Source: Klebsiella pneumoniae (lineage in GTDB: Bacteria > Pseudomonadota > Gammaproteobacteria > Eutrophobiales > Eutrophobiaceae). Taken from it: 64,000 nucleotides of DNA. The notes under the pieces were generated by a model. It was not told the origin of the DNA. It worked only from the letters and a program-made list of their open reading frames with translations, and made no database searches. Of the stretch, positions 2,717 through 49,927 are shown piece after piece. The stretch covers positions 6,559 through 70,558 of the forward strand of contig CAMDWI010000010.1 of the NCBI GenBank assembly GCA_945878555.1, read 5' to 3'. Within the stretch, counting starts at the first letter, position 1; each line of letters begins with the position of its first letter. A program made the translations under genes and the position numbers.

Positions 2717-2775
2717 TTAACGTTAATTTCAGTTGGTTGTTTCAAGGGTTTTCCTTTTATTCAGGGGGTACGACG

Positions 2776-10116: not shown

Positions 10117-10128
10117 CAGGAATGCACA

Positions 10129-23555: not shown

Positions 23556-24560
23556 GTGGTGATGAACAATCCGATTTTTGACCGGTGGACCCCGATACTG
23601 GCCAGACAGGTAATATTGTTGATCGGACTGGCTGGCAGCAGTGCACAGGCCCAGAATAGCGCTGAGCCTGTAGTGATACAGCTACAGGACAGTCAACTGA
23701 CGCGAGACGTATTTGATACCCGGTTCGGAATAGCCGTACGTATGTTGGCAATGCGTCAGGGTATCCAGTACGACGGTAAGGACCAGGAAAAGACCAACAC
23801 GTTACGCAAGCAGTATCTGCGTCAGCGTGCCAGTGAACTGGTCATGTTACAGCAGGCAGAAAAGCTGGGTGTTGTAGTGGACGAGGCCCAGCTTGACGCA
23901 GCAGTTGCAGATTTTTATCACAAGGCAGGCGAAGGCAAGGATCCGAAGCAGGCGCTGCGACAGGTGGGTTTTAGTGATGAATCAGGATTAAGGGACTATT
24001 TACGTGAAATGGAGCGGATACGACTGGCCACAGACAAACTGCGTGACCAGATCATCGTGCCACCCGGCGATGTGATGACGATGCATCATGATCTCGCAGA
24101 CCAGCTGGTCACGCCAGAGCAGATTTGCATGCGCCAGATAGCGGTGGCAGATGAACAGACTGCCCGTCAGTTGCTGGACAAGTTGAAAAGTGGCGCCGAC
24201 TTCGAGACGTTGGCGAAGGAAAACAGCACAGATAAAAAGACCGGTGCGAAAGGTGGTGACATGGGTTGTTTTGAAAAAGAGGGCATGATTGCCCGCACCG
24301 AATTTGAAAATCTGGCGTTTACTGCAAAACAGGGTGAAGTCGCCGGGCCGGTAAAGTCAGAGTTTGGCTATCACCTGATACTGGTCTATAACCGGATAGC
24401 GGCACACACGCCTACACTGAACGAGGCCTACGCCGATCTGGAACTGGAGATACGTCATGAGAAACTGCCCGATGTGCTGGCCGAGCTTATTGATGCGAGT
24501 GGCGTGCAGACCTTTCCGGATCGGCTGGGTATAAAGGAATCACAACCTGCTGAAGAGTAA
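23556..24560 (+). CDS. Periplasmic parvulin-type peptidyl-prolyl cis-trans isomerase (SurA/PpiD-like chaperone)
   Basis: Signal peptide, then an N-terminal chaperone-like helical region and a C-terminal PpiC/parvulin domain (ADFETLAKENSTDKKTGAKGGDMGCF...SEFGYHLILV). Confidence 0.75.
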   Translation: MVMNNPIFDRWTPILARQVILLIGLAGSSAQAQNSAEPVVIQLQDSQLTRDVFDTRFGIAVRMLAMRQGIQYDGKDQEKTNTLRKQYLRQRASELVMLQQAEKLGVVVDEAQLDAAVADFYHKAGEGKDPKQALRQVGFSDESGLRDYLREMERIRLATDKLRDQIIVPPGDVMTMHHDLADQLVTPEQICMRQIAVADEQTARQLLDKLKSGADFETLAKENSTDKKTGAKGGDMGCFEKEGMIARTEFENLAFTAKQGEVAGPVKSEFGYHLILVYNRIAAHTPTLNEAYADLELEIRHEKLPDVLAELIDASGVQTFPDRLGIKESQPAEE

Positions 24561-24645: not shown

Positions 24646-25164
24646 CTAGAATATCGAGTAACCGTTCCAGACCTGGTAGACCAGACCCTTGTTCAGGGCG
24701 ATGCTGAATACCTGTTCAAACAGCAGATAGATTGCAACGGTAACACTGACCGAGATGGTAAGAGATAGCCCCAGTTTTTCCTCGGCAACCATATGCAGCA
24801 GCATGAACATGAATATCATCATGCCGGCGTAATGGCCAACCAGAAATATCAGAACCAGCAACAATATCATCCAGGCAAAAAAACCGGCCACTCCATTAAA
24901 CTCGGTATATTTGCCAGTGATCATTTTATTGAATGCGAGTGCGATATCAGCAAATCCTGCCGCCTTGAACGACTTTTTTATCTGTATCGCAATCATAATC
25001 AACATCGGCACCAGGATGACAATCGGCGTCCTGGCCGAGACGAAGTCATAAGTCAGTGCCGAAGCAAAGGCACCTGCCATTAATGCGCCGATAAACAGGA
25101 TGAAACACAGGTCCAGTGCGGCCATGTGCCTGTCGGCCTGACCTTCTTTATGGTTATTTTCCAT
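24646..25164 (-). CDS. tctB: Tripartite tricarboxylate transporter small membrane subunit (TctB-like)
   Basis: 172-aa protein with 4 predicted TM helices. Its start overlaps the stop of the upstream tctA by 11 nt. The family is poorly conserved, so I assign it by size, topology and position. Confidence 0.55.
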   Translation of the reverse strand: MENNHKEGQADRHMAALDLCFILFIGALMAGAFASALTYDFVSARTPIVILVPMLIMIAIQIKKSFKAAGFADIALAFNKMITGKYTEFNGVAGFFAWMILLLVLIFLVGHYAGMMIFMFMLLHMVAEEKLGLSLTISVSVTVAIYLLFEQVFSIALNKGLVYQVWNGYSIF

Positions 25165-26668
25165 TTGCTGCCTCTTTTTTCTCTTGTATCAGTTTCCAGA
25201 TATTCCAGGCCATGAACACGACAGTGAATATCGCCAGCGTCAGTGGTACCGGGTCAAAGATGAAGTACGGGCCGGACAGCTGGAGCGCCAGATACAGGTT
25301 CTTCTCGATGGCAAATCCGAGAACGAAACCTATCAGCAGTGCAGCGCGCGAGTAACCCAGTTCCTTCATCAGGTAACCCACGATACCAAACACAACTGCC
25401 ACACCGATATCAAACCAGGCATGGTTGATTGCATACGCACCGGTCACAATCGTACAGATCAGTACGGGGACGATGATCTTTGCGCGGATAGCGGAGACCC
25501 GGGTCAACGGATTAATCAGGAACATGCCTCCGGCCATACCAAACAATGCACCTATCCAGATGGTATGGATCATGACAAACACAAGGTCAACATGGTCTGT
25601 TACCATCTTCGGACCGGTTTCAACTCCCATGATAAAGAAGCCTGCCAGCAGGATAGCCATTGACGAGCTGCCTGGTATACCGAACGCGAGTGTTGAACCC
25701 AGCGCACCGCCCTCAACACCGTTGACCGAGGCCTCCGGCGCGATGACACCTTTAACATTACCCTTGCCAAAGGTGTCCTTGTCTTTCGATATCTGTTTGG
25801 CATGGGCATAGCCTATAAATGAGGCCGATGCGCTTCCAAGTCCCGGGATAAGACCGAGGACAACACCAATTGCACTGCTGCGCATGACGATATTCCAGTT
25901 TGCAAAAGCGGCCCTGACGCCCTGAAATATCTGTTTCTGGGTTTCCCTGGCACTTAACGGAGCGCGATCCACCTTGCCGACCAACGATCCGCTTTTTGAC
26001 CATAACTCAAACATTTCGGATATGGCGAACAGTCCCAGAATGACGGCCACCAGGTCAACGCCGTCATGCAAGGCCAAAAGACCAAATGTAAAACGTTCCT
26101 GGTTGGTGACGTTGTCCAGTCCAACCATCGCCAGTAACAGGCCGGCCATTGCGGCGATGATACTCTTGAACAGATCCCCTTCTCCCAGTACCGATACAAA
26201 CGAGAGTGCGAGGAGGACAAGTACGAATATTTCAGCTGGGCCAAACAACAAAACAATGTAACGTAGCGCAGGAAGCAGCAAGGCGATGACCACGCAACCA
26301 AACAGGGCACCCAGGAAGCAGGCCGTCATGGCTGCCCCGACGGCGATACCGGTTTCACCCCTTTCGCGCATCGGTGTACCGTCAAACAAGGTTGGCACGC
26401 TGGTTCCGGTGCCAGGTATGCCAAACAGGATCGCTGTCAGACCACCACCTTGTGCCACGGTAGAATGTGCTCCGATCAGGAAGGCAACGCCAGTGGCCGG
26501 TTCCATCGTGTACAGAAACGGTATCAACATGGCCATCGCAAAATGTCCGCTCAGTCCCGGAATAACGCCGACGATAAACCCGAATATCGCACCACCCATC
26601 ATGTACGGTAATACATCCAGACTTATTGCCTGGAAGAACCCGCTGATCATCCCCTCAACTATACCCAT
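25154..26668 (-). CDS. tctA: Tripartite tricarboxylate transporter permease (TctA family)
   Basis: 504 aa and polytopic. The N-terminal motif GAIFGFIVGVIPGLSGHFAMAMLIPF and the internal repeat ...GIPGSSSMAILLAGF are typical of TctA. Confidence 0.85.
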   Translation of the reverse strand: MGIVEGMISGFFQAISLDVLPYMMGGAIFGFIVGVIPGLSGHFAMAMLIPFLYTMEPATGVAFLIGAHSTVAQGGGLTAILFGIPGTGTSVPTLFDGTPMRERGETGIAVGAAMTACFLGALFGCVVIALLLPALRYIVLLFGPAEIFVLVLLALSFVSVLGEGDLFKSIIAAMAGLLLAMVGLDNVTNQERFTFGLLALHDGVDLVAVILGLFAISEMFELWSKSGSLVGKVDRAPLSARETQKQIFQGVRAAFANWNIVMRSSAIGVVLGLIPGLGSASASFIGYAHAKQISKDKDTFGKGNVKGVIAPEASVNGVEGGALGSTLAFGIPGSSSMAILLAGFFIMGVETGPKMVTDHVDLVFVMIHTIWIGALFGMAGGMFLINPLTRVSAIRAKIIVPVLICTIVTGAYAINHAWFDIGVAVVFGIVGYLMKELGYSRAALLIGFVLGFAIEKNLYLALQLSGPYFIFDPVPLTLAIFTVVFMAWNIWKLIQEKKEAANGK

Positions 26669-26769
26669 AGTGCAGTCCCTGTTTTAAGTATGTAACTGGA
26701 AGTGAAATCATCATAAGAATTAACTGAAAAATCTCCCCCGACGAAATTGAAATATGATTCTGATTAATC

Positions 26770-27837
26770 CTATAACTGGCCGTTAATCGCCTTCACGAAA
26801 AGATCCTTGATGTCCGGGGGCATGTTCGTGGCGTTATTGGTAATTTCATGGATCTCCGCACCCGAGGCGTAGTCAAACAGCCTGCCGGTACGCAGGCCCA
26901 GTGCAATCAATTCAGGGTCATGCATCGCCTTGTCAAAAGCGTCCCGCAGGAACGCCAGTCTGTTTTCCGGTGTACCGGGTGGTGCGGCAACTGATCGGCC
27001 AACTGCAATCAGTGCATCCCAGGCCTTGAGGATTTCACGAGTGCGCTGGGGATTGTCGGTAATATCTGCAAATTCAAAAACGGCCGGTACATCCGGAAGC
27101 GCATCCATTCGCTTGCTGCCACTCTGCAACATAACAATCTCGGCACCGCCATCAATACCTTCTTCTGCGCTACCGTATGACCCCCATGTACCTTTGATGT
27201 TACCGCGCAGCATTTCCTGGCGCACGACGGATGAACTGTCAAAACCATGAATGATCTCCACATTCATTTTAAATGCCTCTTTGGTGATCACGGCATCTAC
27301 ATAGGTACTGCCACCAAGTCCCGTCGCGCCAATCTTCACAGGGGCAGGACTCTTGACGATATCTGCAAATGTATTAAAGCCGGCCGCCTTCGACATGACC
27401 AATACGCGTGGGTCAGCGACGATGCGCCCGAGGTACGCGAACTTATCAAGCTCGTAATTGGCACCTTTGACGCCAGCCAATTCGCTGGTTACCAGCGCAC
27501 TGCCATTGATCATGCCGATAACCAGACCGTCATTCGGTGCTATGTAAAGTTCATTGACACCTTTCATGCCACCGGCACCGGGAAGGTTTTCTACATCAAC
27601 ACGCGCACCGGTGTATTTCCGCAGGTACGGTGACAGCAAACGGGCGTATTCATCATAACCACCACCCGGTGCATAAGGAATAATCCAGGTAATAATCTGT
27701 CCCTTGAAGAAGGCAGCCACATCCTCGTTTTCATCGTGGACTACACCCTGGTTTCTGATCGTACCAACCACGAGTAATACACCGATCACAGCAAAGATCG
27801 TGACGAGACTGATCGCAATTTTCTTGTTCATAGGCAA
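26770..27837 (-). CDS. tctC: Tripartite tricarboxylate transporter substrate-binding protein (TctC/Bug family)
   Basis: 355 aa with an N-terminal anchor/signal. The motif IIPYAPGGGYDEYARLL matches the conserved Bug/TctC N-lobe (PGGxxD). It is divergent from the amidohydrolase at 28069. Confidence 0.8.
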   Translation of the reverse strand: MPMNKKIAISLVTIFAVIGVLLVVGTIRNQGVVHDENEDVAAFFKGQIITWIIPYAPGGGYDEYARLLSPYLRKYTGARVDVENLPGAGGMKGVNELYIAPNDGLVIGMINGSALVTSELAGVKGANYELDKFAYLGRIVADPRVLVMSKAAGFNTFADIVKSPAPVKIGATGLGGSTYVDAVITKEAFKMNVEIIHGFDSSSVVRQEMLRGNIKGTWGSYGSAEEGIDGGAEIVMLQSGSKRMDALPDVPAVFEFADITDNPQRTREILKAWDALIAVGRSVAAPPGTPENRLAFLRDAFDKAMHDPELIALGLRTGRLFDYASGAEIHEITNNATNMPPDIKDLFVKAINGQL

Positions 27838-28068
27838 AACCCTGGATTATCGAAATATAATAATTATGAGAGTGGGACTTATTTTTGTCTGAATGATACA
27901 CATTAAAACAAACTCAAGCCAGCATATCACGGTAGCCAAATAGGGAAAAGTGAGGGAATCTGGTGAATAGGGTTTGCCGCTTACCGGGTGTGAGGACTAG
28001 AATAATTTCAGTAAAATTGTCCAGTATATATTCTGTAACATCGCATCGAATCAGAGGAGCAACAATAG

Positions 28069-29937
28069 ATGAAAATTTCGAGGGGGAGAGTCGCGACTTT
28101 AATGGCTACCGTTGCTTGTGTCGTGATGCCTGCAATAGCCGCCGCCCAGCCACAGCTGGTCATGAATTATGCTGACACCGTACTTTATAACGGCCAGATA
28201 ATTACGGCAGACGACGCCTTTTCCATCAAGGAGGCGATTGCCATACGCGATGGCAAGTTTCTCGCCGTAGGCAAAACCGACGAAATCATGCCGCTGGCAG
28301 GTCCTGAGACCCGCAAGATAGACCTGCAGGGGAAGTCGGTGACACCCGGTTTTATATATTCGGATGGAGATAATGCGGTTCCCGGTGGTGATCTGGTCAA
28401 GGATTCACAATGGAACGGCACGATCCAGGGGCAGATTGGTGGAGATACACTGGAACAGATTGAGCAGACCATCACCCACATTGCCGAGAATGAGGCGCTG
28501 CCTGGCGAGATCGTCTTTATCAAGACGGCAGATAACTGGGCCGGCAAGATACTGGAGACCTGGAACAAGGATACGCTGGACGAGTTATCCCCGAATAATC
28601 CCACCCTGCTTTTACCCGATTGTTGCTATGCAATAGCGAACAGCGCCCTGATTAAGTTGATGCTGGAAAAAGGATTCCCACCCGATCACCTGCATCTGAT
28701 GAAGGATGCTAACGGCAATATTACTGGTCAACTCGGGGCGAACGCCGTTGGTTTTGTCGGTCGCGAGCTACGCCCGTTTCCGCCACCGGAATGGATACAG
28801 GAGAATGGCGTCAAGGCAGCCAGGGAGATGATTAAGGAATACGCTGCTGAAGGAATTACGCTGGCGACTGGGCATATGACCGGACTGACAGTGCTGATCC
28901 TGAACCACCTTTTCAAGGACGGAACGCTGGCGATGCGTGTACACCCGGCACTCGATCTGATGCGTCAGAATGCCTTCCCGGAGCGGACGCTGGGCCGGGT
29001 GGGAAATCTGATGGACTTTGCCTTGTCTGATAAACGTGGGCCGATGGTACAGATTGTCGGTACAGCTGTGGGGCCACACACTGGCGCACCCGATGCCGCC
29101 ATCGGTCTGATGACGCTGGAGGCGAAGACCAACATCCTGCCGGAACTCGGCAAGAACGCACACGGTTATGACCGCTGGAGTGGTCAGTTCTTCAACGACA
29201 AGGGCACAATGCAACTGACCGACGAACAACGCAAGGACACCGAATACCATAACTTTATGCTCGCACGCCAGTACGGATATAACGTGAATGGTGTTCATAA
29301 TATGGGTAGCGGTGGCATCATGCTGTCAATGGAGCTGATCGTTGCGGCAGAAGCCCAGAAGCAGCTGTATGAACCAAATCTGTCGAGGGCACAGGCACTG
29401 GATCATAACATCGACTGGATGCCGGAGAATTTTGAATATTTCAAACAGCACAAGGAACTGCTGACAAAATATCTGCGGGTCGGTGTCAGCCTGAGTACCG
29501 CAATGAGACAACGCGATGCGAAGATGTTTGGTTATGAAGACGTCGTTTCCGCCCAGTATGGTTGGGACGGTCTGGAACGTATGGCACCGTTACGTTCGCT
29601 GTTGGAGGCCGGTATTCCGTTTCATATAGAAGGAACAGACCCGAAGAACAAGCCATTGTCCATTGTTAAGGACGCGGTCACGCGTATTGACCGCAAGGGC
29701 AGGGTTGTTGCCCCGCAAGAGGCATTGACGCGTGAGCAGGCTATCATGGCGATAACCCGTTGGGGTGCCAGGTTTATCAGTGCGGAACACCTGTTTGGCA
29801 CGATTGAGGCCGGGAAATATGCCGACCTCGTTGTATTTGATGGCGACGTGATGAAAGCGCCAATCGAGCAGATTGATCAGATCCGTCCGGTGTTGACACT
29901 GGTGGGTGGCGAGGTCGCCTTCGAAGCCAAACCGTAA
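28069..29937 (+). CDS. Secreted Amidohydro_3-like protein lacking the canonical N-terminal HxH metal motif
   Basis: 622 aa. RBS GAGGAG; signal peptide ending AIAAAQP. It is collinear with the other amidohydrolases and keeps the C-terminal GTIEAGKYADLVVFDGD signature. At the position of ...PGYIDTHNHI it reads ...PGFIYSDGDNA instead. Confidence 0.8.
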   Translation: MKISRGRVATLMATVACVVMPAIAAAQPQLVMNYADTVLYNGQIITADDAFSIKEAIAIRDGKFLAVGKTDEIMPLAGPETRKIDLQGKSVTPGFIYSDGDNAVPGGDLVKDSQWNGTIQGQIGGDTLEQIEQTITHIAENEALPGEIVFIKTADNWAGKILETWNKDTLDELSPNNPTLLLPDCCYAIANSALIKLMLEKGFPPDHLHLMKDANGNITGQLGANAVGFVGRELRPFPPPEWIQENGVKAAREMIKEYAAEGITLATGHMTGLTVLILNHLFKDGTLAMRVHPALDLMRQNAFPERTLGRVGNLMDFALSDKRGPMVQIVGTAVGPHTGAPDAAIGLMTLEAKTNILPELGKNAHGYDRWSGQFFNDKGTMQLTDEQRKDTEYHNFMLARQYGYNVNGVHNMGSGGIMLSMELIVAAEAQKQLYEPNLSRAQALDHNIDWMPENFEYFKQHKELLTKYLRVGVSLSTAMRQRDAKMFGYEDVVSAQYGWDGLERMAPLRSLLEAGIPFHIEGTDPKNKPLSIVKDAVTRIDRKGRVVAPQEALTREQAIMAITRWGARFISAEHLFGTIEAGKYADLVVFDGDVMKAPIEQIDQIRPVLTLVGGEVAFEAKP

Positions 29938-29956
29938 GGTTCAGAGAGGTCGAACA

Positions 29957-29992
29957 GGCCCTCACTTCCATGCGGGAGTGGGGGCTTTTTTA
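29957..29992. terminator. Terminator-like imperfect hairpin followed by a T-run, between convergent genes
   Basis: CCCTCACTTCC-atgcg-GGAGTGGGGG then CTTTTTTAT. It lies between the stop of 28069-29937 (+) and the stop of 29990-30370 (-). Confidence 0.45.
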
Positions 29993-30370
29993 TGTTGGTG
30001 ATTTCCTGAAAAACAGGCTGGCCAGGCCAAGACTGAACAGCATCAATACAGCCGTGAAAGGGGCCTTCATAGACTGTAACGGCAAAACTGGCTGTGTACC
30101 CGCAGCGCTGGTTATAGCAGGGGGCTCAAGACTTCCAGCAGAGGGACCACTGACTGCTTGTGCATTGGAGTCCGGTTTTGTTGTCGTATATTTACCAGTA
30201 ACCGGGTCGACATAGATCAGGTAGGCGGGTGTATCACGATCACTTGCAGCCGCCGGGCGTGGATAAATTGCGCCACACAATACCAGCAGCATCACCGACA
30301 GAAAAACAGCTGTCTGGACTACTCTGGACGAATGCTGTCCGTTATCAACAGACAGAAAGATCAAGCTCAT
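29990..30370 (-). CDS. Small secreted/anchored protein, amidohydrolase-associated family member B
   Basis: 126 aa. Its ATG overlaps the TGA of the upstream amidohydrolase (ATGA at 30367-30370). N-terminal signal/TM, then ...PAYLIYVDPVTGKYTTTKP, a Ser/Ala/Pro-rich linker, the C-terminal hydrophobic segment FTAVLMLFSLGLASLFF and a basic RK tail. Confidence 0.65.
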   Translation of the reverse strand: MSLIFLSVDNGQHSSRVVQTAVFLSVMLLVLCGAIYPRPAAASDRDTPAYLIYVDPVTGKYTTTKPDSNAQAVSGPSAGSLEPPAITSAAGTQPVLPLQSMKAPFTAVLMLFSLGLASLFFRKSPT

Positions 30371-32220
30371 TGCGCTGCCGATTCCCAGAGTTTGGCGTCA
30401 AATACCAGTTTACCCCCGATATAGGTCAGATCAATACCAAGCTTGTCGATGTCGGAATCCGCGACTGCTACAAAATCTCCATTGAGTACGCTGATATCAG
30501 CCCATTTCCCGGGTTCCAGCGAACCCAGTTCATCTTCTTCCCCGATAAATCGCGCAACATTGATCGTCAGCATCTTCAGCGCGGTCATCCGGTCTATCGC
30601 CTGATCGGCACCCCATACCTTGCCATTATGGTCGGTACGTGTCACAAACCGTTCTATCAGCCAGGTGGGATGGTTATGCGGATCGGTCCCTTCAATGTGC
30701 AAACTGTAGCCGCGAGCCAGCAGGTCCTTGACCGGCTGCATCGTGTGCATTTTTTCGCCATATTGAGATTCCAGCAACGGGCGACCGTTGACCGACATGC
30801 GCTGGTCGAAGATCTCCGGGCTGAGCGCCATGGCGACATTGTCCCGGTATTTGTCGATCAGGGGATAGTTCGACTCATGCCAGACCAGATTGTGATCAAA
30901 GGCATTCGGCTTGCGTGCCTTGAAATACGGCTTCACACTGGTATTGAAATTGTCGATGGCGAGCAGGTTGGTCCGCAGGGCCGCGCTACCCATGTTGTGG
31001 TTCCCGCTCATATTCCAGCCGTATTTCAACAGCAGGCTGACAGTATTGTAGTCGGTCTGGGCCTTCAGGTCGTCCGTCATATCGTCCCAGGTCAGGCCGG
31101 TCCAGACCTCGCCGGTCCATTTGTTCAGCCCACGTGGTGTACCACCAATCTCCGGGTCGACCTTCTCCTTGTCATCGATGGTCAGCATGCCGAACTGGCT
31201 GTTGGAACCGTCATCGACCGGGCCGGTGGCAGCACCCACGATCTTCACCATCGGGCCGCGTACCGCGTCTGTCAGCGCAAAATTGACCAGATTGCCGACC
31301 CGTTTCAGATACTGTTCTGCGAACGGATTCTGGCGAATGAAGTCATGTCCCGGATACACACGGATATCGAGCTTGCCATCATGAAACAGCGAGTTCAGCA
31401 GACTGGTGGTCAATCCACTCATATGACCGGTTATTGTCGTCACACCCACGGAGAGATAGCCGCGCAGTACAGCAACGGTTTCTTCGTGTGCCTTTTCGAT
31501 ATATTCCGGGCTGGGCCAGGGCCTGACCTGCCAACCGATAAATCCGGCAGCCTGCTGGAACAGCTGTCCTGTCGGTTTGCCGTCGGCGTCCTTGACGACA
31601 CCGAACATATTCGGGTCCAGACCGGATTCCATAGCACGCTCCATCATGGCACTGTTTACGACTGCGACGGAGTCATTATAAAACAGCGCAATCGGATGGT
31701 CCGGGGATACCTCATCGAGGTCATTTGCGGTCCATTCCTCCGCCTGCCGTGGTGAGGCCTTGGGCATGTTAATGAATACCGGTTCTTCGGGTCGTGCCTT
31801 CGCTATCACCTCGCCGATAGAGTTCAGTAACTCGTCCATTTTTGCGCCGGTGATACGTTCTGTCGAGAGGGCACCGTCCACCTGGGTCATCTTGTAGATA
31901 TCACCCGCCGGTACGGCGCTGTCGCCGTCGTTATAGATAAAACCTGGCGTAACGGTCCTGCCCGAGAGGTCGACCTTTTGCGTCTGTGGACCGGCCAGTT
32001 CGAGTATCTCGATTGTCTTGCCTGTAGCAAGCACACGACCGTCACGTACGGCAATGGCTTCGGTAATCGTATTGTTTTGATCCAGTGTCAGCACCTTGCC
32101 GTTGAACATGATCAGTTCAGGATATTTGATCAGGATTTGGGGCTGGGCATGGCCAACAGTGTTATACAAGAAAAACAGCAATATTGTAGTAATTGATAAC
32201 TTTACTGATGGTATATGCAT
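30367..32220 (-). CDS. Secreted Amidohydro_3-like protein lacking the canonical N-terminal HxH metal motif (paralog of 28069-29937)
   Basis: 617 aa with a signal peptide (..YNTVGHAQP). It reads ...PGFIYNDGDSAVPAG in place of HxH. The C-terminal signature GSLEPGKWADISVLNGD is present. It is about 50% identical to 28069-29937. Confidence 0.8.
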   Translation of the reverse strand: MHIPSVKLSITTILLFFLYNTVGHAQPQILIKYPELIMFNGKVLTLDQNNTITEAIAVRDGRVLATGKTIEILELAGPQTQKVDLSGRTVTPGFIYNDGDSAVPAGDIYKMTQVDGALSTERITGAKMDELLNSIGEVIAKARPEEPVFINMPKASPRQAEEWTANDLDEVSPDHPIALFYNDSVAVVNSAMMERAMESGLDPNMFGVVKDADGKPTGQLFQQAAGFIGWQVRPWPSPEYIEKAHEETVAVLRGYLSVGVTTITGHMSGLTTSLLNSLFHDGKLDIRVYPGHDFIRQNPFAEQYLKRVGNLVNFALTDAVRGPMVKIVGAATGPVDDGSNSQFGMLTIDDKEKVDPEIGGTPRGLNKWTGEVWTGLTWDDMTDDLKAQTDYNTVSLLLKYGWNMSGNHNMGSAALRTNLLAIDNFNTSVKPYFKARKPNAFDHNLVWHESNYPLIDKYRDNVAMALSPEIFDQRMSVNGRPLLESQYGEKMHTMQPVKDLLARGYSLHIEGTDPHNHPTWLIERFVTRTDHNGKVWGADQAIDRMTALKMLTINVARFIGEEDELGSLEPGKWADISVLNGDFVAVADSDIDKLGIDLTYIGGKLVFDAKLWESAAQ

Positions 32221-32528
32221 GACTGCGCCCCCCGGTTGTCAGGCTACTCAGATATGAAAGTTTGAAGGGCAGGTCTCGCCCCGCCACGAGACGATTGTAT
32301 GCCCTTGATAACTCGAGAACAGTAAGCATCATAATTTGACATGCCAGTCAGAGGCAAGGCCGCAATTTACGATAAATTTACGCAGGATTTGCTGGCGATT
32401 TGCTATAGTTGACACTGCATATCATGTTTAATAGTATCGTTGAACTGATCAGCCTGATTTATATCAAAAGTAATGAACTTATATCGTCCATTAAGCAATG
32501 TGTCCTGACGGGGGAACGAGTGTATAAA

Positions 32529-33476
32529 ATGAATTTCAAGAAGCTGTTTGCCAGCATCATTTTACTGGCGGTCTCAACATCCCCGACTTTTGCGGCCTTT
32601 CCGGAAAAGGATATCAAGGTCATTATCGGTGTCAGCCCGGGTGGCGGTTTTGACACCTATATGCGCGCACTTATACCGATACTCGAAAAGTATCTGGGTA
32701 ATGATGTAAATGTGCTGCCAATTAATTCGCCGGGTAGTGGTGGCAGGCGCGGCGCCCTTGAAACATTCAAGGCCAAACCGGACGGTTATACCATCGGCAT
32801 GTTTAATATGCCGGGTGTATTGATCCCGCAGTTAACGGAAAAAGATGTGGGCTATGATCTGGAAAAGATTACCTGGCTGGCCACTCTGGGTAACGACCCG
32901 TATGCATTTATCGTCAACAAGAACAGTGATCTGAAAAGTTTTGAGCAGGTTCTGGCACAAAAGTCGCCCATACTGTTTGGCGCGACCGGCCCATCATCAA
33001 CCTCCTATGTTGCCACGATAATAATGAATGAAACACTGGGTATCCCATACGAAGTGGTGACCGGGTACACCGGTAGCAGTGAATATGCGATGGGTGTGAT
33101 GCGGGGAGATGTGGTTGCCGCATTACTCAGCATGTCCACCGCGCGTGGTTATATCAAGTCTGGTGACGTGAGGGCACTGGCGATGATTGGTATGAAGAGC
33201 ACGGGTCCGGGGATTGCGGATGCCGACAGTCTGGGCAAGCCTGATCTCGGCAAACTGAATGTAGTCCGTATGATAGGCGCGCCTCCCGGTTTGCCGGCAG
33301 ACATCCGGGCTATCTATGAAAAGGCCTTTATGTCAGCGATGGCGGATCCTGAGTTTACCAAGTGGCTGGAGGCTACCGGAAATGATGCATCGCCTGCCGG
33401 TGGGGAGGCAACATCTGCGACCGTGAGTGGACTGGTCGAGTTCTACAATAAATATATAAATGTGTTGAAAAAGTAA
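32529..33476 (+). CDS. tctC: Tripartite tricarboxylate transporter substrate-binding protein (TctC/Bug family), second copy
   Basis: ORF 32409..33476. I prefer the ATG at 32529, which gives the signal peptide MNFKKLFASIILLAVSTSPTFAAF. The motif VIIGVSPGGGFDTYMRALIP is present. Confidence 0.8.
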   Translation: MNFKKLFASIILLAVSTSPTFAAFPEKDIKVIIGVSPGGGFDTYMRALIPILEKYLGNDVNVLPINSPGSGGRRGALETFKAKPDGYTIGMFNMPGVLIPQLTEKDVGYDLEKITWLATLGNDPYAFIVNKNSDLKSFEQVLAQKSPILFGATGPSSTSYVATIIMNETLGIPYEVVTGYTGSSEYAMGVMRGDVVAALLSMSTARGYIKSGDVRALAMIGMKSTGPGIADADSLGKPDLGKLNVVRMIGAPPGLPADIRAIYEKAFMSAMADPEFTKWLEATGNDASPAGGEATSATVSGLVEFYNKYINVLKK

Positions 33477-33565
33477 ACCAGGTTCACGCGGTCACCCTAC
33501 AGTTGTGCCTCGACACAATTTGTCACTCCGCATTTCTATAAACCCGGACACACGGAAACAAACTG

Positions 33566-35059
33566 ATGCTAGAAGTATTGCTTGGCGCAACTGCTGATAT
33601 TTTCACGCTGAGAACCCTGTTATTCCTGCAACTCGGAGTGTTTGCAGGGTTGATCGTCGGTGTTATACCCGGGCTCGGCGGAACAACGGCACTCGCTATC
33701 CTGATGCCTCTCACATTCGGGATGGAACCTATCGATGCATTTGCCATGGCGGGTGGCATCATGGGATCTGTAGGCGCGGGTGGGGCTATCACGGCGATCC
33801 TGATTAATGCGCCTGGTACTGCACCGAATGCGGCGACCTGCCTTGATGGTTATCCGATGGCCCGTCAGGGACGGGCCGCAGAGGCGCTTGGTGCCACATC
33901 TACTGCCTCACCGCTCGGCGGCCTGTTTGGCATGGTGACCTTGTTAATGGTGTTGCCATTTGCCAAGGAGCTGGTGCTGATGTTCAGACCGCCGGAGTTT
34001 TTCCTGCTGGCTGTGTTTGGACTGATATCAATAGCACTGTCTGACACCCGGAATATGATCAGGGGGTTGGTCACTTCCTGTGTGGGGCTGATGCTGGCCT
34101 TTGTTGGCTACGACTCTGTCAGTGGTGGTGACAGGTTCACGCTCGGCTCTGACTACCTGTGGGACGGTATTCCGCTGGTCCCGTCGTTGATAGGCCTGTT
34201 TGCGATGACCGAGATGATACGTCTGACCATATCCGGTGGCAGTGTGGCGGCAGATGCAGACTCTGTCCAGTTGGATGGGATCATGAAGGGTGTGTGGGCA
34301 ACATTTCGGCACTGGAAAGTTGTGTTACGCGGCTCGATCATCGGCACGATAGTAGGCGCAGTACCCGGTGCCGGCGGGACAGTTGCGACTTTCATCTCCT
34401 ATTCTTCGACGAAAAACTCGGACCCGCACCCGGAGACGTTTGGTACGGGACGTATTGAGGGCGTAATCGCGCCGGAGGCCGCAAATAATGCCAAGGACAG
34501 CGGTGCGCTGTTACCAACACTGGCCTTTGGTATCCCGGGCAGTTCAGAAATGGCGGTATTTCTGGGAATTCTGGTTTTACACGGTATGCAGCCGGGACCG
34601 ACGATGCTGCTGGAGCATGAACGCGAGATTTATGGACTGATTATAGCGTTGACCCTGAGTGCTGTCCTGTCTGCTGTGCTGGCGCTGGTACTGATACGCT
34701 GGCTGGCACTGATAACATTGGTTAAAGGCCAGATCCTGGCACCGATAGTGATTATTACCAGTCTGGTCGGTGCCTATGCTATTGATTCGCGGCCGGGTGA
34801 TGTGATGGTTGCAGCGGGCATGGGTGTTATTGGTTATCTGATGGTGCGCTTCCATTATCCACGCCTGCCTCTGGTGATAGCACTGGTACTCGGAGAGACC
34901 GCCGAGCGTGGCTTTATGCAGTCGATGATGATAGGCCGGGGTAGCTGGGGCATTTTTGTCTCCTCGCCTGTCTCCATCATTATGGTGTTATTGATCGTAA
35001 TAAGCTTGTTGTGGTGGTTGGTACCTGTGACCCGGAACTGGCTGCGAGGGGAGAAATAA
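33566..35059 (+). CDS. tctA: Tripartite tricarboxylate transporter permease (TctA family), second copy
   Basis: 497 aa and polytopic, with GLIVGVIPGLGGTTALAILMPLTFGM and GIPGSSEMAVFLGIL repeats; it is homologous to 25154-26668. Confidence 0.85.
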   Translation: MLEVLLGATADIFTLRTLLFLQLGVFAGLIVGVIPGLGGTTALAILMPLTFGMEPIDAFAMAGGIMGSVGAGGAITAILINAPGTAPNAATCLDGYPMARQGRAAEALGATSTASPLGGLFGMVTLLMVLPFAKELVLMFRPPEFFLLAVFGLISIALSDTRNMIRGLVTSCVGLMLAFVGYDSVSGGDRFTLGSDYLWDGIPLVPSLIGLFAMTEMIRLTISGGSVAADADSVQLDGIMKGVWATFRHWKVVLRGSIIGTIVGAVPGAGGTVATFISYSSTKNSDPHPETFGTGRIEGVIAPEAANNAKDSGALLPTLAFGIPGSSEMAVFLGILVLHGMQPGPTMLLEHEREIYGLIIALTLSAVLSAVLALVLIRWLALITLVKGQILAPIVIITSLVGAYAIDSRPGDVMVAAGMGVIGYLMVRFHYPRLPLVIALVLGETAERGFMQSMMIGRGSWGIFVSSPVSIIMVLLIVISLLWWLVPVTRNWLRGEK

Positions 35060-35060
35060 T

Positions 35061-35522
35061 ATGAGTACACAACGTACAGGCAGGTTTATTAATATGCTGC
35101 CTTCATTATTGCTCGCCGCATTTGTGCTCGCCTATCTGGTCACCGGATACCAGACACTGGAGGCAGAGTCGCGTCAGGTGCCAATTATGACTGCCTGGAT
35201 TACCCTTTTCTTGCTGGCGCTGGATTTGTTTACCAGTTGGAAGGGTGGGAATGAGGAGAACCATAAGAAGACTGAGGTAGACCTTCCCCTGTTTATCGAG
35301 CTCCGGGCACCGCTGTCTCTGTTGGCGCTCATCGTAATGATCTACTTTGTCGGGTTCTATATTGGTGGCAGCATCTATCTGGTGCTCGCCTTGTGCTGGT
35401 TGGGTGATCAGAAGCTGCGGTTTTCTATCATTACAACAGTAATTACATTTTTGTCCATCTATCTGTTGTTTGAGAAGGGCTTGTCGTTTCAGCTGTTTCG
35501 GGGCGTCCTGTTAGCCAGTTGA
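35061..35522 (+). CDS. tctB: TctB-like small membrane subunit, second copy
   Basis: 153 aa with 4 TM helices. It starts 2 nt after the tctA stop (TAATATG). Confidence 0.55.
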   Translation: MSTQRTGRFINMLPSLLLAAFVLAYLVTGYQTLEAESRQVPIMTAWITLFLLALDLFTSWKGGNEENHKKTEVDLPLFIELRAPLSLLALIVMIYFVGFYIGGSIYLVLALCWLGDQKLRFSIITTVITFLSIYLLFEKGLSFQLFRGVLLAS

Positions 35523-35572
35523 TGCGGTACGGGGTGGTCAGGACAGGTTCCTGACCACCCTCGTGCAAACTA

Positions 35573-37069
35573 CTACTTATCGACTACGAAATAACCACCT
35601 TTGATAGCCTGGTCCCACTGCTCAAATACGGCTGGACCTACCCCGAATTTCACCCCATCGACAAACTCACCTGACATGTAGCCGTGTGTGCCGTAGGGAT
35701 ACTGTGTTAGTGACACCCTGGGTGCCGGCTGCATCTTTTTAAACAGGGGGATGATCACTTCTTCGTAGACATCCCGGCTGTGGTCCCGGCTATGGGCGGT
35801 GATCTGGAACATGATCGGCGGTACCGGTTTTACCCCGGCGCCTTTCAGTTCGGTTTTAAGCCCGACATAGTGTTCAACCATAGTCTCGGTCTCTTCCTCG
35901 TCCAGATTCAGCCGTTTTGCGGTGACACGTGCGGCCTCGCGTAATGAATCTTCGATGTCATGTGTGACCACATATTCAGCCTTGAATTCAGGGCGGGGCT
36001 GTACATCGCCCCAGTCCTCAAGGATGTCTTCCATGATCATCGGTAGCCGCATCATTGCCTCCGGGCCCTCCTGGCCCAGCAGTTCTGGACCGACATAGCG
36101 CGCATCATCACGCCAGCTGCGTATATACAGGTCGTTAAACGGGTCAGTACGCGACTCCAGACCATAGTCATCAACGACACGTTCATATCCATCAATCTTG
36201 CCCAATTCACCGCCCCAGGCATGTTTGGCGCGATTGATATAGCCAAACGAGGAGTTTTCCACGGCCAGAACACCGGCGATATTCGGTACGCGTTGTGACA
36301 GCATCATCGTGAATGGACCGCCGGTTGAGTGGCCATGTACATAGACGGAGTATTCGCCTTCAGGAAAATGCTTACGCATGACCGCGATACCGCCCTGCTC
36401 AAATGCAATCGGCCATCCGGCCATCCGGTTATAGAAGTTTGTTCCCGGCTTTGCCCTCGCCAGTGTGCGAATGCCATAACGCGGACGCTGTTCATGGTCT
36501 TCAACGATATCGTACTGGTCGCGCGTGATGTATTCGCCCTGTAACCAGATGGGGGTGCGGACCTCGAGTGAATACTTGTGATGGTCATAAGCGGTCACGT
36601 TCCTGCCCGGCCAGTCCCGGCTCTCTGTATGGAAGGCATGGCGCCCGGGGTAACTCATGCTGATGACCTTATAGCCAAGTTTGCGCGCAAGCAGACTGGC
36701 CTGACGGTGCATCGACTTGAAATCACCCGAACCACCGTGTAACAGATATATGCCTATCTTCTTGCCATCTGCACCGGTGGGTATTTTTGATGGGTCTTCA
36801 GGTTCATGTACCGATATACCAATGTCCCAGTCCATACCTACTGCATTTATGCGTACGATGTCCTCAACATATCCCTTCTCACCGCCCTTCAGTGGCAAAT
36901 CAGGACGAGACATGAAATTCCGAATCATGGCCTGGGTGTCCTCTTCTGCAATATCGCTGGGTGGCACATAGCGTTGGGCAAGGGTGGGTAGGGACAGGGT
37001 AATAATTATCAATGAGCAGAGTACCCTGGCCAGGGAGGGCCATAATACTGCTTTGGGTTGATTGGACAT
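35573..37069 (-). CDS. Secreted alpha/beta-fold hydrolase
   Basis: 498 aa with a signal peptide (..LSLPTLAQ). It has the nucleophile elbow VHGHSTGGPF (GxSxG) and an HGGSGD block typical of alpha/beta hydrolases. Confidence 0.7.
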   Translation of the reverse strand: MSNQPKAVLWPSLARVLCSLIIITLSLPTLAQRYVPPSDIAEEDTQAMIRNFMSRPDLPLKGGEKGYVEDIVRINAVGMDWDIGISVHEPEDPSKIPTGADGKKIGIYLLHGGSGDFKSMHRQASLLARKLGYKVISMSYPGRHAFHTESRDWPGRNVTAYDHHKYSLEVRTPIWLQGEYITRDQYDIVEDHEQRPRYGIRTLARAKPGTNFYNRMAGWPIAFEQGGIAVMRKHFPEGEYSVYVHGHSTGGPFTMMLSQRVPNIAGVLAVENSSFGYINRAKHAWGGELGKIDGYERVVDDYGLESRTDPFNDLYIRSWRDDARYVGPELLGQEGPEAMMRLPMIMEDILEDWGDVQPRPEFKAEYVVTHDIEDSLREAARVTAKRLNLDEEETETMVEHYVGLKTELKGAGVKPVPPIMFQITAHSRDHSRDVYEEVIIPLFKKMQPAPRVSLTQYPYGTHGYMSGEFVDGVKFGVGPAVFEQWDQAIKGGYFVVDK

Positions 37070-37289
37070 GACAAAACCTCCAGAGTATGAATTTTACGTG
37101 CAAATTTACAGCATCAGTCTAGATAAGTTTGGAGGAGCCGACAACCATCCGGACAAAGAAACAGGGATACAGATCAGATAAACAGGATTTCAGTAGAAGT
37201 AATGAATGAGGCAGGATTTAAATGCAGTGGGTATCTGCAAAAATGGCTCTCGCTGGCAATCAGACGATTGCCAGCGAGAGGTAACAGTG

Positions 37290-39905
37290 CTAGTTGTAGT
37301 TATATCTCAGCTGGATTCCGTAAGTCCGGAAAGAGTTCGAACTGATGGTTTCGTAAAGTATCGGATCCGGTAACAAATCAAATTCCGGGTAGTATTTGAT
37401 TCTTGGTTCGAGCAGGTTACGTCCGTATATGGACAGTTCCCAGGTATCATCCAGGTCAGCGATGCCCAGGCTGAGGTTCAGGTCGGAATGGGTCGGCATG
37501 CGGACAATCTGATCGAAGCTTTCGATATTGGTTACATAGCCGTCTGAATACTTGAACCGCCCGTTAAAGGTCATCTTGTAGCTGTCCAGGATCGGCCACC
37601 AGTAATCTGCGCCGATGGTGAACACCCATTCTGGCAGGCGTGGCAGTCTCTCTCCGGTACGGTCGATGGTATTTTCCAGGTCGTCATTTCCAACCAACGC
37701 AATCGACTCAGCAGCGCTGATACAAGGCCCACTATCGGCATTCACGGATTCAAAGGTGGTACAGCCCGCGTTGCTAAAGCTTCGCATCTTTCCGTCATAG
37801 ATGGCACCGTTAAAGCTCAGTGTCAGGCGGTCGGTAGCGGCAGCTAACAGGTCTGCCTCAAGGCCCTGTACCCGCAATTTGCCAGCGTTGACAGTCTGAC
37901 TGGCTACACCTGTATTGGTGACTACAGCGAGAGGCAGGGTAGTACCGATTTGCAGATTGTCGACGGTGGTACTGGAGGCCGAGACACCACCACGGGCGCG
38001 GCCGTCCCAGAAGGTTCCGCGTGCGCCAACCTCATACATGGTTGTCTTTTCCGGACCGAATACAAAGTTTTCCGGTTGCGGTGTACTCTTCAGTTCGACC
38101 TCGAACCCACCAGCCTTAAATGCTTCGGCATATTTGGCATACAGCGAAACATCTTCCATCGGGCGATAACGCAGTACAACCTGGGGATCGAAGAAGGTGC
38201 CGTCGTTCGTCGCGTCATTACGTGCGACACCGTCGGCTGGTGCATTGCGTTCCGGTGTCATCCCGATCGGGGTAGCGCCGACAAACCGTGAGTAGTTCGG
38301 GGTGGCAGTCAGACTGCGGAAGCGGTTATGAGTGGTCTCATTCGGTATGACAAATGGAGTTCCCGGTGCAAGTGGGTCGTCAAAGATCCACTCCTGAACG
38401 AACTGGATCTGTCCGCCGTGTTTTTTAACATCGGAGTAACGACCACCCAGGTCCAGTGACATCTTGTCATCAAAGAAGTTGAACGTTAGTGCCGCGAAGC
38501 CGCTGAGCCACTCTGCATCCTCGAATCCGACCGGATTACGTGCGGGCCTACGTACATTCGAACGCAGACCGATGGTCTTCAGGTCGAGGTCGTTGTTGTG
38601 ATAGTAGGCACCAATCATCCATTCGATCATGCCCCCGGTCGGCGAGCTGAGCTTCACTTCCTGACTCCACTGATCCAGAAATTCGGAACGGAAGGTGTAG
38701 TTCGACAGGAAGTATTGACCGCTGTTGTCTTCAGAGTTTTTGCGGACATAGCGGCTATAACCGGTTGTGGAACTCAGTTCTATATCGTTTGCGAAGGTGT
38801 ATCTCAAGTCGAGATAGCTGTCCCACGGGCTCAAATCGTCATGGGCCTCGATACTATCCGGACCCTGTGAACCCCAGGGCGAAGTGCGCATGTAGTCGGG
38901 AAGGAATCCGGACAGGTCGATGCTGGTCCTGTCTGAAGAGTTCAGGAAGACGAGCCCGTCGACTGCCGGATTCAGATATTCGAGAGACGGACGGATACCC
39001 CATTCGCCGAATTCTGCCGGTATCGGCTGGAAGTTTGCATTACTTAGCCCCGTTATTAACGTATGTCTTGCATAGCGTTCGGTTGGGATAGGATTCATAT
39101 CAGAGCCGATGCTGCGCGCGACCGCATTACCCTCTCCCTGGGTCTGCTTGTTGGCCATCTGGAATTTGGCAGTAGCCTGAAAATTTTCCGCTGGTGTCCA
39201 TTGAAGTATCGCCCGTCCCATGAATACCTGATATTTCGGGAAGGTATCGCCGGTAAGGATGTCTTTCATATAACCTGAGGATCGATCATATTTTCCGGCC
39301 ACGCGTATTCCCAGGGTATCGCTGATAGGGCCACCGACACCAAACTCAACAGCATTCTTGTCCTGGTTACCTGCTTCAGCACGTAGATTGCCTTCCCATG
39401 TAGAGGTAGGCTTACGCGTAGTAATACTGAATGCGCCGGCATTCGCGTTCTGTCCGAAATAGATCGGTTGGGGGCCGCGCAGGATTTCCACCCGCTCAGC
39501 GTCCAGAAATGCAGCCAGTATTTGTCCTGACCTTCCAAAGTGGATGCCATCAACAAAGGTAGGTGCAGACTGTTCCAGGGCCTGGTTGTTTCCAGCAGTA
39601 CCCACGCCGCGAATTGTGATATTAATTCTGTCTTGTCCCGCATCAATCGTGGCGCCAGGTGAAAACTGGGTAAGGTCTACCATGTCCCGGAAACCCTGTT
39701 TATCAATTTCAGCGCCGGTGAATGCCTCGATGGATATTGGCACTTCCTGAAGTGATTGTTCACGACGCTGGGCCGTTACGACAATTTCTTCCAGTGCCTG
39801 AGCCTGAACCTGAACCGATGGCACCGAGATAATTGCGCAGATGGCAGCGCCAATAATGGAACAGAATCTTGAACTGGATGGCTTTAGAAGCTTAGCCATA
39901 GACAT
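37290..39905 (-). CDS. TonB-dependent outer-membrane receptor (paralog of 14727-17450)
   Basis: 871 aa with a signal peptide. The plug-domain N-terminus is ALEEIVVTAQRREQSLQEVPISIEAFTG and the C-terminus ends ...RYNYN. Confidence 0.9.
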   Translation of the reverse strand: MSMAKLLKPSSSRFCSIIGAAICAIISVPSVQVQAQALEEIVVTAQRREQSLQEVPISIEAFTGAEIDKQGFRDMVDLTQFSPGATIDAGQDRINITIRGVGTAGNNQALEQSAPTFVDGIHFGRSGQILAAFLDAERVEILRGPQPIYFGQNANAGAFSITTRKPTSTWEGNLRAEAGNQDKNAVEFGVGGPISDTLGIRVAGKYDRSSGYMKDILTGDTFPKYQVFMGRAILQWTPAENFQATAKFQMANKQTQGEGNAVARSIGSDMNPIPTERYARHTLITGLSNANFQPIPAEFGEWGIRPSLEYLNPAVDGLVFLNSSDRTSIDLSGFLPDYMRTSPWGSQGPDSIEAHDDLSPWDSYLDLRYTFANDIELSSTTGYSRYVRKNSEDNSGQYFLSNYTFRSEFLDQWSQEVKLSSPTGGMIEWMIGAYYHNNDLDLKTIGLRSNVRRPARNPVGFEDAEWLSGFAALTFNFFDDKMSLDLGGRYSDVKKHGGQIQFVQEWIFDDPLAPGTPFVIPNETTHNRFRSLTATPNYSRFVGATPIGMTPERNAPADGVARNDATNDGTFFDPQVVLRYRPMEDVSLYAKYAEAFKAGGFEVELKSTPQPENFVFGPEKTTMYEVGARGTFWDGRARGGVSASSTTVDNLQIGTTLPLAVVTNTGVASQTVNAGKLRVQGLEADLLAAATDRLTLSFNGAIYDGKMRSFSNAGCTTFESVNADSGPCISAAESIALVGNDDLENTIDRTGERLPRLPEWVFTIGADYWWPILDSYKMTFNGRFKYSDGYVTNIESFDQIVRMPTHSDLNLSLGIADLDDTWELSIYGRNLLEPRIKYYPEFDLLPDPILYETISSNSFRTYGIQLRYNYN

Positions 39906-40087
39906 ACCCCCTTTTGATTTGTTAAATAGGCAACAGTGTTGTTAGTACAACATAAATTACAATAATACAACTGTCAATGCGAATACAAAAGCCCCCCGGA
40001 GGTAAATTCCCCCGTTATTCCTTATTAACTCAAGGAATCTGGATAACGTATTAGCACTACGGGGGAGCTTGTGTCGTTCAGTGGCGT

Positions 40088-41590: not shown

Positions 41591-41674
41591 AGGGATGGTG
41601 GTTATTCGCTGGTGGTAGTTGGAAAAATCCCGGGGACGTATCAGGAGACTGTCCCCGGGACATGCATAGACAAA

Positions 41675-47289: not shown

Positions 47290-47291
47290 CC

Positions 47292-49918: not shown

Positions 49919-49927
49919 CAGGGCAGT

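Follow-up and report, generated by a model that had tools for sequence, protein, structure and literature searches.

Does a gene order that reads the same from both ends of a locus record an inverted duplication? We addressed this question for positions 24646-35522 of a 64,000-nucleotide stretch of DNA (assembly GCA_945878555.1, contig CAMDWI010000010.1, positions 6,559 to 70,558; listed as Klebsiella pneumoniae and assigned in GTDB to the gammaproteobacterial family Eutrophobiaceae), hereafter the window. Here, two operons for tripartite tricarboxylate transporters (TTT), each encoding the solute-binding protein TctC, the large permease TctA and the small membrane subunit TctB, flank a convergent pair of genes for amidohydrolase-fold proteins. 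A preliminary description of this DNA suggested that the symmetry stems from an ancient inverted duplication of a transporter-plus-hydrolase unit. Our comparisons lend no support to such an origin: the amidohydrolases are sisters and the TctA copies are not. We propose, with a probability of about 0.7, that the locus is a composite nutrient-uptake island of an uncultured gammaproteobacterium from marine or sediment habitats, with relatives in UBA4486/Ca. Eutrophobiales and Woeseiaceae, in which an old hydrolase pair is flanked by two TTT importers that are not duplicates of one another, the parts having been brought together by rearrangement. Gene content, homology, phylogeny and synteny were computed, cellular locations are inferred from N-termini, and the substrate, the flow of metabolites and all functions are likewise inferred.

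Gene order and the centre of the locus

The left arm (L) consists of tctB_L (24646-25164), which overlaps the end of tctA_L (25154-26668), and tctC_L (26770-27837), all on the minus strand, together with amh_L (28069-29937) on the plus strand. The right arm (R) consists of a small gene (29990-30370) and amh_R (30367-32220) on the minus strand, and of tctC_R (open reading frame (ORF) 32409-33476, likely 32529-33476), tctA_R (33566-35059) and tctB_R (35061-35522) on the plus strand. The ORF list and the Pfam matches confirm the nine genes of the preliminary description with their coordinates and strands, as well as their order, namely tctB-tctA-tctC leftward, amh_L rightward, the small gene and amh_R leftward and tctC-tctA-tctB rightward; the C-A-B order that it gave for both transporter operons is borne out by the ORF positions.

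Both permeases are full-length members of the TctA family (PF01970; 388 bits, E 5.7e-116, model positions 3-422 of 423 for TctA_L, and 436 bits, E 1.4e-130, positions 1-423 for TctA_R), and both binding proteins belong to the TctC/Bug family (PF03401; 46.1 bits for TctC_L and 72.7 bits for TctC_R, with a cut-off of 27). Each tctA gene is accompanied by a tctB gene: TctB_R scores above the PF07331 cut-off of 29.1 bits (40.8 bits), and TctB_L, which scores below it (20.7 bits), is homologous to TctB_R and to the TctB proteins of L-type orthologs. No further TTT genes were found elsewhere in the 64-kb window.

The mirror order recurs in two further independent assemblies (loci L002 and L059; L002-L064 denote the comparison loci that we fetched and onto which the window proteins were mapped) and thus is inherited rather than an assembly artefact. 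The symmetry does not hold at the centre, where the preliminary description had placed the small anchored protein. The small gene overlaps the stop codon of amh_R by 4 nt, and amh_L is followed on the plus strand by an intrinsic-terminator-like element of its own (29956-29991; hairpin at 29956-29987 with a 14-pair stem, including 8 GC pairs, and then TTTTTT), so that the centre is asymmetric and the small gene is part of the right arm.

Divergence of the two arms

The arms are homologous and diverged, as had been noted, with TctC the least conserved component (31% identity); the divergence is greater than described, given that the amidohydrolases, reported to be about 50% identical, share 38% of their residues, the TctA proteins 37%, and the TctB proteins 36% across 61 residues (E 2.6e-9). 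Such closely similar values (31-38%) for all four homologous gene pairs, the C-A-B order common to both operons, the true sister relationship of the amidohydrolases and the stable inheritance of the mirror order in three assemblies are all compatible with the duplication, in inverted orientation, of a single unit that consisted of tctC-tctA-tctB and an amidohydrolase gene, after which the arms would have diverged in place. At the DNA level, this model finds no backing: when the left arm was set against the reverse-complemented right arm at the nucleotide level, symmetry was essentially absent, and no inverted DNA repeat was detected. The comparison yielded three short matches (123 nt at 69% identity, 99 nt at 68%, and 36 nt), all of which fall in conserved protein motifs.

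The relationships of the permeases argue against the duplication model as well. An exhaustive search with TctA_R against 1.84 billion representatives of 50%-identity clusters yielded at least 317.7 bits for each of the best 150 listed matches (the 150th being at 317.7), compared to 303.5 bits between TctA_L and TctA_R, so that at least 150 cluster representatives are nearer to TctA_R than TctA_L is. In a tree of 192 TctA sequences (constructed, like all trees in this work, by neighbour-joining on simple distances), the two copies are never sisters: the smallest split that holds both contains 147 taxa, and none of the 100 bootstraps reduced it to fewer than 79 of the 192. TctA_L has relatives at least 64% identical in more than 120 clusters, including those from Rhodobacteraceae and Hyphomicrobiales, that is, Alphaproteobacteria, at 66%; the amidohydrolases with the D-x-D motif described below were found only in Woeseiaceae-like Gammaproteobacteria. 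Judging from these sequences, TctA_L and TctA_R belong to deeply separated TctA lineages and are not sisters. For the permeases, then, the two copies are closest to different lineages, the very outcome that the preliminary description had named as contrary to its proposal; the amidohydrolases are each other's closest paralogs, and the TctA proteins are not.

In the subfamily of TctA_L, the C-A-B order is normal, and TctA-TctB fusion proteins are included; an order in which tctB comes after tctA is known from a minority of systems, exemplified by SlcHFG, and rare TctA-TctB fusions have been documented as well (PMC5812351). Because the alphaproteobacterial orthologs of the R-type operon have the order B-C-A, the C-A-B order that both window operons share does not testify to common descent by local duplication. 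Like inverted segmental duplications, the locus is palindromic at the level of gene families, but it lacks an inverted DNA repeat, its order is limited to a shallow clade and, among the gene pairs that were placed in trees, only the amidohydrolases are sisters.

For tctC_R, the ORF opens at TTG 32409; translation most likely begins at ATG 32529, from which the protein has a signal peptide. TTG 32409 opens a sigma-70-like promoter sequence of tctCAB_R (32409-32437, plus strand; TTGACA-17-TAGTAT, 10 of 12 matches). This site is conserved in L002 and the surrounding DNA is not; promoter and terminator scans were overall no richer than those of shuffled sequence, and the two strongest sites were used, one of them being that conserved in L002. 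TctC_L has a long hydrophobic start with no obvious signal-peptidase site (MNKKIAISLVTIFAVIGVLLVVGTIRNQG) and may be membrane-anchored instead of free in the periplasm.

The locus resembles characterized TTT systems, such as Salmonella TctCBA and Bordetella BctCBA, in that it encodes two full sets of TctC, TctA and TctB, each in one operon, and it shares the C-A-B order with SlcHFG of Roseovarius and Chromohalobacter. It differs in that its TctC proteins are distant from the solved and characterized Bug/TctC proteins (E 1e-13 to 1e-16; the best solved relative of TctC_L is BugE, 2DVZ, E 6.5e-13, and those of TctC_R are BugE and terephthalate-binding proteins, E about 1e-15), in that there is no adjacent two-component regulator, and in that two non-sister systems flank periplasmic hydrolases.

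History of the amidohydrolase pair

Searches with amh_L and amh_R each returned more than 120 clusters, which separate without overlap into two groups: in the L-type group, identity is at least 48% to amh_L and does not exceed 43% to amh_R, and in the R-type group, it is at least 55% to amh_R and does not exceed 42% to amh_L. The L and R types are reciprocally monophyletic (bootstrap 97/100 and 100/100) and jointly exclude (100/100) the three HxH-bearing paralogs among the five Amidohydro_3 genes of the window. The named carriers of the family are all uncultured Gammaproteobacteria, namely Woeseiaceae, Ca. Eutrophobius, which has been placed in the GTDB order UBA4486 (PMC11758582), and their relatives, and both types co-occur on many contigs and metagenome-assembled genomes (MAGs). 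The co-occurrence of the two sister types across these groups indicates that the L/R duplication predates the split of the carrier orders. A literature search for amidohydrolases in Woeseiaceae found nothing.

Several Woeseiaceae-like MAGs (L021, L024-L028) carry tandem arrays (at about 8-16 kb in each locus) of three to four L-like paralogs that are 47-50% identical to amh_L; in L026 and L027, a TonB receptor gene and a EutA-like gene come next. The window itself contains another tandem pair of Amidohydro_3 genes (492-2483 and 2713-4764), which are 87% identical to each other and about 25% identical to amh_L and amh_R; both products have a signal peptide and the canonical HxH motif, and their mutual identity indicates a recent duplication.

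Synteny in relatives

The mirror order was found only in the window, L002 and L059 (amh_L 85% identical), and no lineage below 85% amidohydrolase identity retains it, although more distant relatives have inherited both paralogs. Gene orders of other kinds occur in relatives at 71-80% amidohydrolase identity. In six relatives with amh_L at 70-74% identity (L003, L004, L005, L020, L051 and L052), the convergent pair is flanked differently: an R-type tctB-tctA-tctC block, with TctA 70-76% identical to tctA_R, lies next to amh_L and diverges from it, and the small gene and amh_R are preceded, in the same direction, by an operon for a third TTT type, again in the order tctC-tctA-tctB, with TctA 37-39% identical to TctA_L. 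In a Woeseiaceae locus (L032), an L-type tctC-tctA-tctB operon (62-64% identity) is located upstream of, and co-directional with, an R-type amidohydrolase gene and the small gene. Other Woeseiaceae and related MAGs (L009, L014, L035 and L053) have amh_R, the small gene and a gene denoted unk498 (see below) in one direction, with amh_L further away and no TTT nearby, and L058 (amh_L 79%) has a TonB receptor gene, amh_L and amh_R' in a row.

The L-type transporter operon travels with an adjoining gene for a SurA-like peptidyl-prolyl isomerase (PPIase) with a signal peptide (23556-24560, plus strand; Pfam Rotamase and SurA_N), which is convergent with tctB_L. The same PPIase-tctB_L junction is present in L002 and in L055, where the L-type ortholog (68%), with its convergent PPIase gene, is about 10-20 kb from the amidohydrolase pair, on the same 204-kb contig as L051.

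Given that an R-type TTT adjoins amh_L in six relatives and an L-type TTT precedes an R-type amidohydrolase in L032, the pairing of transporter and hydrolase is swapped among relatives; the hydrolase pair is thus the conserved core of the locus, and the type of the adjoining transporter varies. Only a shallow clade has the mirror order, which was probably assembled fairly recently from older parts. We therefore consider it highly improbable that the arms stem from an inverted duplication. Instead, a rearrangement within the shallow clade would have set the PPIase-tctCAB_L block and the tctCAB_R operon on either side of the convergent hydrolase pair. For the study of genome architecture, this implies a caution: a palindromic gene order can come from the shuffling of old paralogs and is not necessarily the trace of a duplication.

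The amidohydrolase fold and its remodelled metal motif

Both Amh proteins match Amidohydro_3 above the threshold (PF07969, 107 and 111 bits), and the AlphaFold2 model of amh_L (pLDDT 93.8) is a (beta/alpha)8-barrel, for which the best PDB matches in Foldseek are the uncharacterized YtcJ-like hydrolases 3ICJ and 3IGH (probability 1.00, E 4e-25, TM 0.52-0.68, 16-18% identity). The model match and the barrel with a composite beta-sandwich domain place the pair among the YtcJ-like amidohydrolases. In contrast to 3ICJ and 3IGH, the Amh proteins contain D-x-D at the end of strand 1 and an invariant H-x-E at strand 8; they are about 620 aa long, carry signal peptides and, in the case of the R-type, have a small anchored partner. 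Neither amh_L nor amh_R has the canonical metal-binding HxH motif where strand 1 ends, its place being taken by D99-G-D101: the segment PGFIYSDGD aligns with PGYIDTHNH and PGIIETHVH of the HxH paralogs in the window and with GGIDPHTH of the D-hydantoinase 1K1D. With a single exception, the 235 family members examined carry the motif IY[NS]DGD, about a dozen of them with D-A-D. At strand 8, the usual Asp of the GTD motif is not conserved, and H519-x-E521 is invariant.

The near-universal replacement of HxH and the loss of the strand-8 Asp could mean that amh_L and amh_R are not enzymes at all, and are instead periplasmic binding or scaffold proteins, with the small protein tethering amh_R to the membrane. 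We regard this as quite improbable, on three grounds. First, H269, H410, H446, H519, E521, D99 and D101 are invariant and are located at, or just after, the predicted ends of barrel strands in the AlphaFold2 model, as in a preserved metal or active site, H410 and H446 being the putative counterparts of the histidines after strands 5 and 6; this pattern suggests a remodelled metal site that would still be functional. Second, there is a precedent in E. coli NagA, in which HxH is replaced by QxN and which nevertheless is an active mononuclear enzyme that employs histidines of strands 5 and 6, to which the invariant H410 and H446 of the Amh family would correspond. NagA, a cytoplasmic protein of about 380 aa, shows no detectable specific relationship to these proteins and differs from them in having QxN rather than DxD. 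Third, the family forms tandem arrays beside TonB receptors, which is typical of catabolic enzymes.

No NCBIfam equivalog was found for any gene of the locus, for the bicupins, for the EutA-like protein or for unk498, and sequence searches of the PDB gave distant matches only. The locus exposes a large uncharacterized family of periplasmic proteins with an amidohydrolase fold and a remodelled metal site, carried by some Gammaproteobacteria that rank among the most abundant in benthic and estuarine habitats.

The small partner of amh_R

In 17 of 17 loci, the gene that comes directly after that of the R-type amidohydrolase encodes a homologue of the small protein. The gap between the two ranges from -273 to +93 nt; most of these genes begin within 25 nt of the stop codon, and eight overlap it. 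The 126-aa protein of the window, which has no Pfam family, starts with a signal peptide and carries the conserved motif SDRDTPAYLIYVDPVTGKYT; a low-complexity linker then leads to a transmembrane helix at the C-terminus, with basic residues after it. The order of elements in these proteins is constant: signal peptide, acidic stretch, PxY[MLK]IY[IV]DPxTG[KR]YT, low-complexity linker, C-terminal hydrophobic helix, and basic residues. Sorting of the PEP-CTERM kind was considered and rejected (E 3.9). Thus, the small protein is, by its genomic association, a dedicated downstream partner of amh_R, and it probably serves as a membrane tether or a small subunit of this protein; such a conserved, anchored partner of the R-type is another feature of value that the locus exposes.

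The window amh_L is not accompanied by a small anchored protein of its own. Elsewhere, L-type or other paralogs are followed by genes for anchored small proteins that likewise have a signal peptide and a C-terminal helix and whose motif (APYLxV..G.LVT) is related (L053, 11889-12206; L051, 21156-21638), and given these proteins, the tether may be a general accessory of the amidohydrolase family.

A two-transporter cluster shared with Alphaproteobacteria

Both transporters of the window have orthologs in a cluster that is conserved in Alphaproteobacteria and on further contigs (L056, L060/61 and L063/64) and that was reached independently from the L-type match (P0347, P0353) and from the best R-type representative (P0361). 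The cluster consists of tctC-tctA-tctB (L-type), a gene for a bicupin of about 405 aa, a gene for a EutA-family ATPase of about 500 aa, and tctB-tctC-tctA (R-type). Orthologs of all four components are present in the window: in comparison with L056, L060 and L063, tctA_L is 63-66% identical, the bicupin CupC (41675-42895, minus strand; Pfam Cupin_2, predicted to be cytoplasmic) 63%, the EutA-like protein (40088-41590, minus strand; Pfam EutA, E 2e-116, below the NCBIfam equivalog cut-offs, likewise predicted to be cytoplasmic) 48-50%, and tctA_R 56-59%. The window components are neither contiguous nor co-directional: they are spread over 24646-42895 on both strands and interrupted by the amidohydrolase pair, unk498 and the gene for a TonB receptor, with the bicupin and EutA-like genes 4.5-7 kb to the right of the mirror locus. 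No ethanolamine lyase genes were found near the cluster, nor any ethanolamine ammonia-lyase genes among the neighbouring genes scanned around the EutA-like gene of the window, and a literature search that combined EutA, cupin and TctC found nothing relevant, so that the cluster is, as far as this search reached, undescribed. This two-transporter/bicupin/EutA-like cluster in common with Alphaproteobacteria is likewise brought to light by the locus.

The coordinates of the cluster are 6886-15887 in L056, 2492-11515 in L060 and 8886-17891 in L063, with the corresponding parts of the window at 24646-27837, 32529-35522 and 40088-42895. Genes for a Rieske protein, two monocupins, EamA and LysR are located downstream of the cluster, and the hosts include a Rhodobacteraceae plasmid-like contig and a Hyphomicrobiales MAG. 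The window encodes three bicupins altogether (13256-14398, 17625-18857 and 41675-42895), with about 30% mutual identity; the first has a signal peptide, and the gene for the second adjoins that for an FAD-dependent aromatic-ring hydroxylase (18866-20494), which suggests ring-cleavage chemistry.

Genes to the right of the mirror locus

Next to tctB_R is unk498 (35573-37069, minus strand), which encodes a secreted protein of 498 aa with a GHSTGG nucleophile elbow and sub-threshold Abhydrolase matches only, which is probably an alpha/beta hydrolase of a divergent kind; its candidacy as a third amidohydrolase was rejected, as it has no similarity to the other two. This gene follows amh_R and the small gene in the Woeseiaceae loci, is near them in L003, L005 and L051, and is absent from L002 and L059; by this distribution, it appears to be a conserved companion of the amidohydrolase pair. 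The adjacent gene codes for a TonB-dependent outer-membrane receptor (37290-39905, minus strand; Pfam Plug and beta-barrel), a 71% identical ortholog of which is encoded directly upstream of the amh_L ortholog in L058. A strong terminator-like hairpin of 15 pairs (37247-37280, minus strand) between the receptor gene and unk498 suggests that these are separate transcripts.

Signal-peptide-like N-termini were identified in amh_L, amh_R, unk498 and the TonB receptor, and in TctC_R only when translation starts at ATG 32529; TctC_L begins with a hydrophobic anchor or signal, and the N-termini of the cluster-type bicupin and the EutA-like protein are not signal-peptide-like. Nearby genes of the window encode a type II asparaginase, an FAD aromatic hydroxylase, an FAH-family hydrolase and bicupins, which hint at amides of amino acids or aromatic acids, with no match at the equivalog level.

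A possible pathway and the coupling of hydrolysis to uptake

The core of the proposed system would be the old sister pair of periplasmic, non-canonical YtcJ-like amidohydrolases, amh_R being assisted by its membrane-tethered small partner. In this scheme, the TonB-dependent receptor would admit an amide- or ester-linked compound; the periplasmic amidohydrolases, together with the alpha/beta-hydrolase-like protein, would cleave it; the two TctC proteins would capture two carboxylate products for TctAB-driven import; and the bicupin and EutA-like proteins would process these products in the cytoplasm. The locus resembles TonB-dependent utilization loci in the clustering of a TonB receptor, secreted hydrolases and binding-protein-dependent importers, but it lacks a SusD-like partner, glycoside hydrolases and an adjacent regulator, and the inner-membrane step would be performed by TTT. 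A literature search that linked TTT, amidohydrolase and TonB found nothing. We view the locus as an ordinary kind of catabolic island, the components of which are an unusual family of amidohydrolases, a small partner not described before and a conserved module of two TTT systems.

The uptake, via TctC, of products that the hydrolases release had already been suggested in the preliminary description. It is plausible that TTT uptake is coupled to periplasmic hydrolysis, and the idea is somewhat strengthened by the finding that different TTT subfamilies have repeatedly been recruited directly beside these hydrolases. Alternatively, the juxtaposition might involve no functional coupling, with the TTT systems serving only the bicupin/EutA-like pathway and the amidohydrolase pair being an unrelated insertion. 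The succession tctCAB(L)-bicupin-EutA-tctBCA(R) in L056, L060 and L063, where no amidohydrolase is present, would fit such an arrangement, as would the Woeseiaceae loci, such as L053, that hold the amidohydrolase pair with no TTT nearby, and the lack of a shared operator in the two intergenic regions. Nevertheless, three TTT subfamilies are found directly beside these amidohydrolases, and in L032, L051 and L052, tctC-tctA-tctB-amh_R-small genes are co-directional with gaps of 160 nt or less and thus operon-like; such recurrent, independent recruitment argues for a shared pathway and makes the absence of coupling unlikely.

Several considerations weigh against our reading of the locus as a composite island. 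The two-TTT cluster of Alphaproteobacteria works with no amidohydrolase in it, and the TTT systems may thus receive nothing from the hydrolases; moreover, neither a regulator nor a shared operator motif joins the two divergent promoter regions (the search for such a motif in the intergenic regions gave a single mismatched 11-mer, which was judged to be a chance match). With HxH lost, catalysis by amh_L and amh_R is putative, and no characterized homologue in NCBIfam, PDB or Foldseek comparisons constrains the substrate of the locus proteins. The phylogenetic evidence comes from neighbour-joining on simple distances, with the TctA sampling biased to the best matches of each copy; the broad placement covered TctA, and TctC and TctB were compared pairwise. 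Finally, no outgroup is mirror-ordered, yet the non-mirror relatives could be a single clade, so that the rearrangement may have run in either direction.

A more specific version of the proposed scheme is tentative and, in our estimate, possible rather than probable. It holds that amh_L and amh_R represent an undescribed amidohydrolase branch (D-x-D at strand 1, H-x-E at strand 8), the R-type of which has a tethered partner of 100-130 aa with a periplasmic hairpin-like motif (PxYxIY[IV]DPxTGKYT), and that, together with the TonB receptor, this branch might form the front end of a two-TTT/bicupin/EutA-like pathway for an amide-linked marine substrate, being abundant and expanded in marine Gammaproteobacteria of the Woeseiaceae and UBA4486 types. 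Were the substrate identified, many marine metagenome genes would gain a functional assignment, and the short list of known TTT cargoes would grow.

Other features of the window

Two separate operons of the Bat-like kind, encoding MoxR-type AAA ATPases, DUF58 proteins and VWA-domain proteins, are located at 8078-13027 and 46270-51953. A multidomain PSD/PSCyt protein (DUF1592/1588/1585/1587/1595) is encoded beside its DUF1552 (HXXSHH) partner, and this pair is followed by the gene for a 606-aa ankyrin-repeat protein, which is unusual in a gammaproteobacterium (56154-59986 and 60013-61833).

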